Positions 22,931-24,259 of a DNA stretch of 64,000 bases are shown piece after piece (positions within the stretch are counted from its first letter, which is position 1; the number at the start of each line of letters is the position of its first letter). The notes under the pieces were generated by a model that saw nothing but the letters and a program-made list of their open reading frames with translations, had not been told where the DNA came from and did no database searches. A program made the translations under genes and the position numbers. The DNA comes from an uncultured Chloroflexia bacterium (GTDB lineage Bacteria; Chloroflexota; Ktedonobacteria; Ktedonobacterales; JADMIN01), in assembly GCA_963810535.1 (NCBI GenBank), contig CAWENW010000009.1:16363-80362 (forward strand), in the 5' to 3' direction.

Positions 22931-24246
22931 ATGACCTACGTCTTTGTCGTCGATACCCAGAACCGTCCCCTCACCCCCGTTCACCCTGGAACTGCCAGGC
23001 GATTGCTCACGCTTGGCAAAGCGGCGGTGTGGCGACGCTACCCCTTCACCATCATTCTCAAGCAGGCCAAACCCGACGAGGCTGCTCCGCCCCTTCGTCT
23101 CAAGATTGATCCCGGCTCGAAGACCACGGGACTGGCCATCGTCCACGACCTAACCGGGCAGGTTCCGTTTGCGGCAGAACTGACCCATCGCGGCCAGCAG
23201 GTCTGCGATGGCTTGACGGCGCGTCGGGCCGTTCGCCGTGCTCGTCGCGCGCGTCATACACGCTATCGGCCGGCACGCTCCAATAACCGGACCAGAGCCG
23301 AGGGGTGGCTGGCCCCCTCGCTGGAGAGTCGCGTGCAGAACGTGCTCACCTGGGTACACCGGCTGGCACGCCTCTGCCCCATCACCGCGCTCTCCCTGGA
23401 ACTCGTCAGGTTTGATACCCACGTGATGCAGAATCCGCAGATCAGCGGAGTGGAGTATCAGCAGGGCGAGCTGGCGGGCTATGAAGTGCGGGAATACCTA
23501 TTGGAGAAGTGGCATCGGACCTGCGTGTACTGTGGAGCAACCAGCGTCCCGCTGCAGGTCGAGCATATTGTGCCCAGAAGCCGCGGCGGGTCTCATCGCA
23601 TCAGTAATCTCACACTCGCCTGTGCACGCTGCAATCTCGCCAAAGGCACACAGACGGCTGCTGAGTTTGGCCATCCTCAGGTCCAGGCACAAGCCAACGT
23701 GCCCTTGCACGATGCTGCGGCGGTCAACACGACGCGGTGGGCACTGTATCAGCGTCTTCGGAGCCTGGGTCTCCCGCTGGAAACGGCAAGCGGTGGACGC
23801 ACCAAGTGGAATCGCATCCAGCGGAACCTCCCCAAAACACATTGGCTGGATGCGGCCTGTGTGGGGACCAGCACCCCTGTCACACTTGGCGTTGCCTCCG
23901 TGCGGGCACTGCTCATCACGGCCAGGGGACGCGAGTCGCGGCAGATGTGCCGGATGAATTCGTATGGCTTCCCCAGGACAGCGGCCAAAGGCCAACGACG
24001 GATCAAGGGGTTTGTGACGGGTGATCTGGTGCGCGCCGTGGTGAGGTCTGGGACGAAGGTTGGGACCTACACCGGGAGGGTCGCCGTCCGTGCCTCCGGT
24101 TCGTTCAACATCACCACCCGTGGGGTGACCGTTGCGGGCATCAACCACCGGAATTGTCACGCCATCCAGCAGGCTGATGGCTATTCATATGAGAAAGGAG
24201 AACGCGCTTTCCTCCCGATCCCCGAAAGGGGATGGGTCTCCAGCGC
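22621..24246 (+). mobile_element. non-autonomous IS200/IS605-type element carrying iscB (boundaries approximate)
   Basis: Near-identical same-strand hairpins ATCCCC-tggaa-GGGGATGGG (22640-22659) and ATCCCC-gaaa-GGGGATGGG (24218-24236) bracket the omegaRNA region and iscB. No tnpA is present. Ends are extrapolated from IS608-like spacing, not observed. Confidence 0.5.
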
Positions 24247-24259
24247 GAATGTGCTATGA
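22931..24259 (+). CDS. iscB: IscB, OMEGA RNA-guided RuvC/HNH endonuclease
   Basis: Motifs in order: PLMP-type N-domain ([30 protein letters not shown]), Ruv[16 protein letters not shown], Arg-rich bridge helix [23 protein letters not shown], Ruv[46 protein letters not shown], Ruv[13 protein letters not shown], then a C-terminal tail. ATG at 22931 preferred to GTG at 22922. Confidence 0.85.

Follow-up and report, generated by a model that had tools for sequence, protein, structure and literature searches.

We analyzed a 64,000-nucleotide stretch of DNA from an uncultured Chloroflexia bacterium (Ktedonobacterales; assembly GCA_963810535.1, contig CAWENW010000009.1, positions 16,363 to 80,362), here called the window, and found that it carries a genuine and intact IscB which, by its sequence, belongs with the RNA-guided nucleases related to the Cas9 ancestor. 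The iscB gene and its omegaRNA appear to form a complete and functional unit, judged by sequence comparison, and travel on a small transposon that has settled exactly on the start codon of the host gene pyrR. This transposon is very probably a non-autonomous ISC element of a published type belonging to the IS200/IS605 superfamily.

The iscB open reading frame (ORF) occupies 22931..24259 on the plus strand, from an ATG at 22931 to a TGA ending at 24259, and encodes 442 amino acids. Both its position and its length are as given in the initial annotation, which had recognized an IscB from the order of its motifs and had named profile hidden Markov model (HMM) searches and comparison with cryo-electron microscopy structures of IscB-omegaRNA as suitable checks. 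An alternative in-frame GTG at 22922, which would give a 445-residue protein, was rejected, as the consensus N-terminus of the family (MSxVFVLD) favors the ATG at 22931. The profile searches gave a clear answer. The NCBIfam equivalog model NF040563 ("RNA-guided endonuclease IscB") matched the whole protein with 437.4 bits against a cut-off of 175, Pfam RRXRR matched residues 4-179 (E = 1.3e-67), and Pfam HNH matched residues 198-240 (E = 4.8e-13). The top PDB sequence matches were all IscBs, namely TbaIscB, HfmIscB and OgeuIscB.

Every motif that the annotation had listed is present and aligns with the matching motif of solved IscBs. The PLTP sequence at residues 13-16, which it had read in place of PLMP, aligns with the PLMP motif of OgeuIscB (residues 14-17); among 40 relatives, P13 and L14 are at least 90% conserved and P16 is invariant, while the third position varies. 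The acidic and histidine catalytic positions, which had been described as intact, map onto OgeuIscB residues whose roles were taken from Kato et al. (PMC9640706). In the RuvC domain, D60 (RuvC-I) corresponds to D61, E157 (RuvC-II) to E193, and H304 and D307 (RuvC-III) to H340 and D343; in the HNH domain (CxxC...EH212...CxxC), H212 corresponds to H247. The four RuvC residues are invariant in the alignment of 40 relatives, as are C198, C201 and H212 of the HNH domain. The arginine-rich bridge helix lies at about residues 88-108, where AlphaFold predicts a helix.

The structural comparison agreed. The best PDB matches found by Foldseek for an AlphaFold model of the protein (predicted template modeling score, pTM, 0.61) were IscB-omegaRNA(-DNA) complexes, with 8csz first (E = 1e-19) and 9liq next (E = 1e-18), followed by IsrB, Cas9d and Cas9. 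The alignments to the IscB complexes were full-length, and the 442-residue protein has no recognition (REC) lobe. The C-terminal tail noted in the annotation exists, but it is not featureless: AlphaFold predicts beta strands at residues 360-422, with a predicted local distance difference test score (pLDDT) of 81-89, and only residues 423-442 are disordered. These strands, taken with the Foldseek match of the whole model, point to the C-terminal beta-barrel of the wedge (WED)/target-adjacent motif (TAM)-interacting (TI) region. As a protein, this IscB is a routine member of its family; its close relatives in databases number more than 8000, and the usual NCBI annotation would recognize it by name.

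A cognate omegaRNA lies immediately upstream of iscB, as judged by covariance model and conservation. The Rfam family RF02033 (HEARO) is now recognized as the IscB omegaRNA, and its model lacks the downstream structural elements (Meers et al., 10.1101/2023.03.14.532601). In the window, this model matched 22628..22878 on the plus strand over all of its positions (1-211 of 211) with 120.8 bits against a gathering threshold of 83, leaving 52 nt between the end of the match and the iscB ATG. HEARO RNA was found directly upstream of iscB in 9 of 9 occupied relatives scanned and in neither of two unoccupied loci. A consensus fold of nine omegaRNAs contains 58 pairs, 32 of which show compensatory double changes. 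Just 3' of the Rfam model, an additional hairpin (CTGG...CCAG, 22879..22900, plus strand) has four pairs, each compensated in one to four relatives (alignment columns 319-340). The initial annotation had reported no tracrRNA pairing partner. There is indeed no tracrRNA, but a partner RNA is identifiable in the HEARO sequence, which the first reading had missed.

The extent of the transposon could be defined by comparing copies. At 90% identity, the IscB cluster contains six members in three genomic contexts in metagenome contigs: between a pyrroloquinoline quinone (PQQ)-propeller gene and pyrR-pyrB-pyrC-carAB (the window and locus L008), between a hypothetical gene and a gene for a KaiC-like ATPase (L011, plus a frameshifted copy in L009), and between a methyltransferase gene and fur (L010). 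The copies share a block that starts with GTCAGGTACCC at window position 22628, which is also HEARO position 1, and ends in ...GT[G/T]CT followed by ATGA (24256-24259). The first bases of the element are 5'-GTCAGG. Outside this block the copies are unrelated, and in the alignment homology begins exactly at 22628. An unoccupied fur allele is available in a near-identical contig, L014, where GACGAAGGAT runs directly into ATGACGTTT, a flank that begins ATGACG. In the occupied allele of L010, GACGAAGGAT, ending in GGAT, is followed by GTCAGG...GTTCT and then by ATGACGTTT. The two alleles differ by exactly the element block; the ATGA was there before insertion and was not duplicated, and an independent gene call places the Fur start in the unoccupied allele at the same ATG. 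From the copy alignment and the fur alleles together, the element spans 22628..24255 (1628 bp, plus strand in the orientation of iscB), and its cargo consists only of the omegaRNA gene and iscB. The paralogous copies and the unoccupied site thus confirm the transposon-borne architecture that had been proposed from motifs.

In the naming convention of TnpA, position 22628 is the right end (RE) of the element and position 24255 its left end (LE). Each end has a subterminal hairpin. The RE hairpin (ATCCCC-TGGAA-GGGGAT, 22640..22656; DNA fold z = -2.4) doubles as the first inner stem of the omegaRNA and is the presumed TnpA binding site. The LE hairpin (ATCCCC-GAAA-GGGGAT, 24218..24233; fold z = -3.2) lies inside the 3' coding region of iscB and encodes part of the disordered tail. 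The distance from hairpin to terminus is 12 nt at one end of the element and 22 nt at the other, and there are no terminal inverted repeats. The pattern ATCCCC-N3-6-GGGGAT occurs only twice in the 64 kb, both times at the element ends, against none expected by chance.

The host target, which is also the predicted TAM, is ATGA(A) at 24256..24260 on the plus strand (TTCAT on the TnpA top strand), an assignment that draws on the empty fur allele, the published ISC target and the TAM of GstIscB. An N/ATGA target (the slash marking the insertion point) was found at every defined site of the element. In two more distant clades (L001-3 and L004-5), the element also starts at HEARO position 1, and its opposite end is followed by ATGA. 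In the window, the host ATGA completes the final sense codon and stop of iscB (CT/A TGA), such that the ATGA at 24256 serves both to stop iscB and to start pyrR. A relative at 69% identity, P0007 (L041, L043 and L045 compared with L044 and L046), ends in ...GCGCATA[T/A]TTCT followed by ATGG; since this flank is not ATGA, the wider clade does not keep strictly to the fourth target base. One of the two P0007 sites is on the terminator of a convergent gene, off a start codon.

IscB guides sit immediately 5' of the scaffold (PMC9640706; Meers 2023, 10.1101/2023.03.14.532601). Because the element boundary at 22628 coincides with the scaffold start, the guide should be flanking host DNA, and the guide region of each element copy is indeed whichever host DNA flanks that copy. 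In the window, the putative guide segment is GGAAAGGTGACCTCTT (22612..22627, plus strand), adjoining the RE of the transposon. It is unique within the window and holds the displaced ribosome-binding site of pyrR, AGGTGA. We infer a guide length of about 16 nt.

Published work on related systems (Meers 2023; Kapitonov 2016; IscB structures) suggests how such a unit would operate. TnpA and IscB read the same TAM, which for wild-type GstIscB is TTCAT, and IscB cuts the scarless excision joint, after which recombination restores the element (10.1101/2023.03.14.532601). By the same logic, a Y1 TnpA encoded elsewhere would excise and insert the window element as single-stranded DNA beside TCAT, which reads ATGA on the strand of IscB. 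An RNA that starts at the pyr promoter and runs through the PyrR attenuator would carry the ~16 nt before 22628, GGAAAGGTGACCTCTT, as a guide fused to the scaffold. The IscB-omegaRNA complex would then cut chromosome copies in which GGAAAGGTGACCTCTT directly abuts the TAM ATGA, i.e., the scarless excision joint or an unoccupied allele; the predicted donor joint at pyrR is GGTGACCTCTT joined to ATGAATTCC. Such cleavage would lead recombination to copy the element back, and the occupied site would be spared because GTCA, not ATGA, follows the guide match there.

The closest descriptions of this type of element are those of Kapitonov, Makarova and Koonin (2016, PMC4810608). These authors described ISC transposons as short, non-autonomous and IscB-only; the 5' terminus is GTCA and the hairpins are subterminal. 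In some families insertion is at N/ATGA without duplication, and all are presumed to be mobilized in trans by a Y1 TnpA. Their ISC1-1_MA, ISC2-1_HM and ISC2-1_MS resemble the window element: they are about 1.3-1.7 kb long, non-autonomous and IscB-only, have a 5'-GT(CA) end and subterminal hairpins in place of inverted repeats, and are inserted 5' of ATGA without duplication. Their ends were likewise set by comparing occupied and empty loci. The hosts differ, as the ATGA-target families came from Cyanobacteria and Proteobacteria, whereas those from Chloroflexi (K. racemifer) used GT/GG or GT/GA. That paper predates omegaRNA, and the terms start codon and stop codon are absent from it.

GstIscB of ISGst, from Geobacillus stearothermophilus, shares with the window system an omegaRNA (HEARO) upstream of iscB that is bounded by RE, and a TAM that abuts LE. 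Its TAM, TTCAT, is the ATGAA of the window on the other strand. It also has no adjacent tnpA and relies on host transcription, with an orientation bias reported for the Gst element (10.1101/2023.03.14.532601). A start-codon position behind a regulated leader is not described there, and the likeness is drawn from the description of that element, not from its sequence. Among proteins of solved structure, OgeuIscB (PDB 7XHT, 7UTN, 8CSZ) is the best structural match, with the same domain order (PLMP, RuvC-I, bridge helix, RuvC-II, HNH, RuvC-III, WED/TI) and the same catalytic residues. It differs in sequence (about 20-24% identity by structural alignment), in length (496 versus 442 residues) and in its TAM, which is NWRRNA/NNRR as against the ATGA predicted here. 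The TAM-reading residues of OgeuIscB are not transferable to the window protein because the sequence alignment fades after residue 341.

The setting of the element in the host genome was examined next to an unoccupied relative. The host pyr operon has a putative sigma-70-like promoter (TTGCCG-18-TG-TATACT, 22453..22482, plus strand), found by promoter scan at the position seen in L012. It is followed by a leader outside the element (22498..22606, plus strand), which comprises a PyrR-binding hairpin and an attenuator terminator with a T-run at 22600-22607. This leader matched the Rfam model RF00515 over its full length with 29.5 bits, which falls short of the gathering threshold of 54 (E = 0.055, 701 nt searched). 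It shares 81% identity with its counterpart in L012/L013, a sister locus free of IscB. In that sister lineage, the operon is the same, PyrR is about 80% identical, and there is no IscB; pyrR begins at ATGA and is preceded, in this order, by a promoter (TATAAT), a PyrR-binding leader, a T-run terminator and the ribosome-binding site AGGTGA. The order in the window is a promoter-like site, the leader, AGGTGA, the element and then pyrR from ATGA. The ribosome-binding site of pyrR is now 1.63 kb upstream of the gene. The pyrR gene itself (24256..24882, plus strand, 208 amino acids), identified by Pfam Pribosyltran, the names of its homologs and synteny with L008, L012 and L013, is the first gene of pyrR-pyrB-pyrC-carAB.

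On this arrangement, the guide, omegaRNA and iscB are likely transcribed from the pyr promoter, and expression of IscB and its omegaRNA is probably tied to pyrimidine-regulated attenuation by PyrR. Since iscB stops and pyrR starts on one and the same host ATGA, translation of PyrR probably proceeds by termination-reinitiation after IscB at this overlap. Further along the operon, frameshifts (27155..32323) break up two genes that are each single in L008: carA falls into two ORFs that overlap (27155..27814 and 27732..28544) and carB into at least three (28531..29766, 29763..31019 and 31484..32323). These frameshifts may be either assembly errors or real decay.

The same arrangement could be taken to mean that IscB has been domesticated, i.e., that the host has co-opted it as an RNA-guided regulator or as a fixed cistron of the pyr leader, and that it is immobile and no longer selfish. 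The insertion site is the same in the two sampled strains (the window and L008), the overlap of the iscB stop with the pyrR start would make the host gene depend on IscB, and no TnpA was found nearby. Known domesticated relatives are typically nuclease-dead. In the window protein, by contrast, every nuclease residue is intact, the same element is polymorphic at fur and present at two other sites, the guide at each copy is merely the flanking host DNA, and both terminal hairpins have been kept. We therefore regard domestication as very unlikely.

Sequence divergence among copies speaks to whether this transposon has been functional. Among three diverged iscB copies, the ratio of nonsynonymous to synonymous substitution rates (dN/dS) is 0.23-0.35. 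The omegaRNA region differs by 2-3% between copies as compared with a dS of 0.07-0.15, which makes the divergence of the RNA 2.6- to 5-fold lower than that at synonymous sites. These values indicate that both protein and RNA were under purifying selection during the spread of the element.

Several observations weigh against the picture of an active, start-codon-borne IscB transposon. The only IscB-free comparator for pyrR is the sister lineage with a PyrR of about 80% identity, and its stretch from ribosome-binding site to ATG cannot be matched to that of the window base by base. Quality is moderate for the AlphaFold model (pLDDT 72.5), with a global template modeling score of only 0.46-0.50 to IscB structures. 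RNA-guided cleavage, the TAM preference, the guide length and translational coupling are all predictions. The copy at the kaiC site in L009 (10001..11023) is frameshifted, its IscB being called at 340 amino acids with small indels in the alignment, and individual element copies therefore do decay. The kaiC-site comparator, L015, is not a clean empty site, as it has 63 nt extra between two ATGA motifs.

Finally, searches by motif regular expression, by tblastn with approximate IS200/IS608 TnpA probes and by Pfam on ORFs of at least 120 amino acids detected no TnpA, either in the window or in the related loci retrieved. The tblastn matches were at chance level, the lone weak one (L001 4126-4410, E = 0.009) containing stop codons. 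Since this search was weak and covered the window and those related loci only, present-day mobility can only be presumed. A Y1 TnpA would be expected to act on the element in trans, given that tnpA lies close to only about 1.5% of iscB genes (10.1101/2023.03.14.532601). By analogy to IS608, we also looked for pairing between the cleavage tetranucleotides (TCAT and TGAC) and the bases 5' of the hairpins, and none was obvious.

In the compared region of L015 (2920..3005), the extra 63 nt read ATGACTCGG...GGTGGCAC, and the occupied locus L011 (9680..9700, 11326) combines the first ATGA's left flank with the second ATGA. This second ATGA is the start codon of the kaiC-like gene. It seems that a deletion between the two ATGA motifs or a second transposition step moved the element onto this start.

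An inactive relic, in which the ORF is open by chance or very young and the system no longer works, would account for the frameshifted L009 paralog and the absence of a detectable TnpA, and the carA/carB frameshifts could point to an assembly or genome prone to errors or decay. Such a relic is highly improbable given the dN/dS values across three diverged copies, the reduced divergence of the RNA, the compensatory base-pair changes across the clade and the retention of all invariant family positions that were checked. A stand-alone McrA-like HNH restriction endonuclease, suggested by the JGI automatic name of many homologs ("5-methylcytosine-specific restriction endonuclease McrA") and by the significant HNH matches, is effectively refuted by the domain architecture and scarcely credible, as the HNH domain comprises only residues 198-247 inserted in a split RuvC, the IscB equivalog threshold is passed, a HEARO RNA is adjacent, and EcoKMcrA ranked 39th in the fold search (E = 2.7e-3).

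Cas9 and the compact type II-D Cas9d share with the window IscB an HNH domain in a split RuvC, an arginine-rich bridge helix and RNA-guided cleavage beside an adjacent motif (predicted in the case of the window IscB), and they gave weak HMM and fold matches. The Cas9 and Cas9d models scored far below their cut-offs (20 versus 100 bits and 47 versus 375, respectively). Repeat searches found no CRISPR-like repeat-spacer array in the window, and Pfam found no cas gene or domain among its 59 ORFs of at least 120 amino acids, as the initial annotation had maintained. A CRISPR-associated Cas9 or Cas9d was rejected for lack of an array, cas genes (cas1 and cas2 included) and a REC lobe; there is no tracrRNA either. 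Unlike Cas9, the window system would use a single long scaffold RNA and a guide that is fixed by the insertion site.

The position of the element at pyrR raised the question of where other copies reside. Scans of genomes and metagenomes yielded only 7 and 15 relatives, respectively. At eight of the nine sites whose ends were set by paralog or empty-site comparison, the target ATG opens a Pfam-supported host gene; these genes encode PyrR, Fur, a KaiC-like protein, an SH3 protein, an FGE-sulfatase, a GH3 protein, an M20 peptidase and an M50 peptidase. When less well-defined sites are included, about 11 of 15 are on start codons. Among the added sites are one at a GT4 glycosyltransferase whose N-terminus is of textbook type and three that clearly miss start codons. 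Loci L016, L018-L020 and L025-L030 have no definable right end and were either excluded from the count or scored as failures.

As a random expectation, ORFs with a minimum of 100-150 amino acids open at only 12-18% of all ATGA sites in these sequences, which gives P of about 1e-6 to 3e-7 for the observed pattern. This simple null flatters the pattern because survival of a promoterless element may be confined to co-oriented 5' untranslated regions or starts. If start codons make up a third to half of eligible ATGA sites, P becomes 0.001-0.06 (0.02-0.06 at half). We put forward tentatively, and lean slightly against, the idea that copies of this clade are kept preferentially on host start codons, with ATGA acting as the TnpA target, the TAM, often the IscB stop and the host start. 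It is possible, though a little short of an even chance, that by the same means the promoterless element borrows a host promoter and leader and returns translation to the host gene through the stop-start overlap, such that insertion is almost harmless and excision scarless. The docking pattern may also be no more than a consequence of targeting ATGA, of depending on host transcription and of the cost that gene disruption carries.

Neither start-codon docking nor translational coupling of IscB or HEARO was found in the literature searched, a search outside which the original HEARO paper and Altae-Tran 2021 fall. Docking on start codons may already have been noted in other papers. Weinberg et al., in describing HEARO in 2009, reportedly noted insertion 5' of ATGA/GTGA.

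The window contains further features of interest. The initial annotation had singled out IscB as the best candidate for a programmable system in these 64 kb, having missed a second element of the obligate mobile element-guided activity (OMEGA) type. This block of about 1.42 kb (32645..34068) carries a stand-alone TnpB ORF (32814..34055, plus strand) with Pfam matches to OrfB_IS605, the Cas12f1-like TNB domain and HTH_OrfB_IS605, and no tnpA adjoins it. Sister contig L008, near-identical in other respects, lacks the block: there, GGAGGTGAAG and GGTAGTCC are contiguous, and a minus-strand ORF for a membrane protein, which the block interrupts in the window, is intact. A 307-residue ORF at 19717..20640 (minus strand) has only HTH_33, HTH_32, HTH_23 and HTH_29 matches, typically seen at the N-terminus of an IS630-type transposase, and no DDE domain; it is probably a degraded transposase remnant. 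At 16742..18328 (plus strand), a 528-residue protein has an N-terminal TIR_2 domain followed by many TPR repeats, an architecture seen in signaling and defense proteins. A regulator with WYL and HTH_11 domains (39837..40541, minus strand) adjoins a gene for bacterial class A RNase P RNA (38898..39321, plus strand; 265.6 bits). In addition, a 9-nt tandem repeat, CGCTGTCGT, is present in 10.8 copies at 12054..12150, inside an ORF on the minus strand (11706..12254), and would give the protein a repetitive acidic stretch.

Earlier work (Kapitonov 2016; Meers 2023) has already published this type of element, its ATGA target and the logic of guide and TAM, and with thousands of near relatives in databases the identification itself adds little. 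Its practical value is that of a natural example with base-level definition of the guide, the scaffold, the TAM, both ends and an unoccupied allele, and one for which diverged paralogs are available. Because the system is so cleanly delimited, a compact 442-residue nuclease with a predicted ATGA TAM is directly testable. Start-codon docking together with coupling to the pyr attenuator is possibly the only lead here with some novelty. If docking is selected and not incidental, it shows how a promoterless selfish element can gain regulated expression while the host gene keeps working. If this is true, some host genes, here pyrR, would be translated only by way of a transposon ORF.

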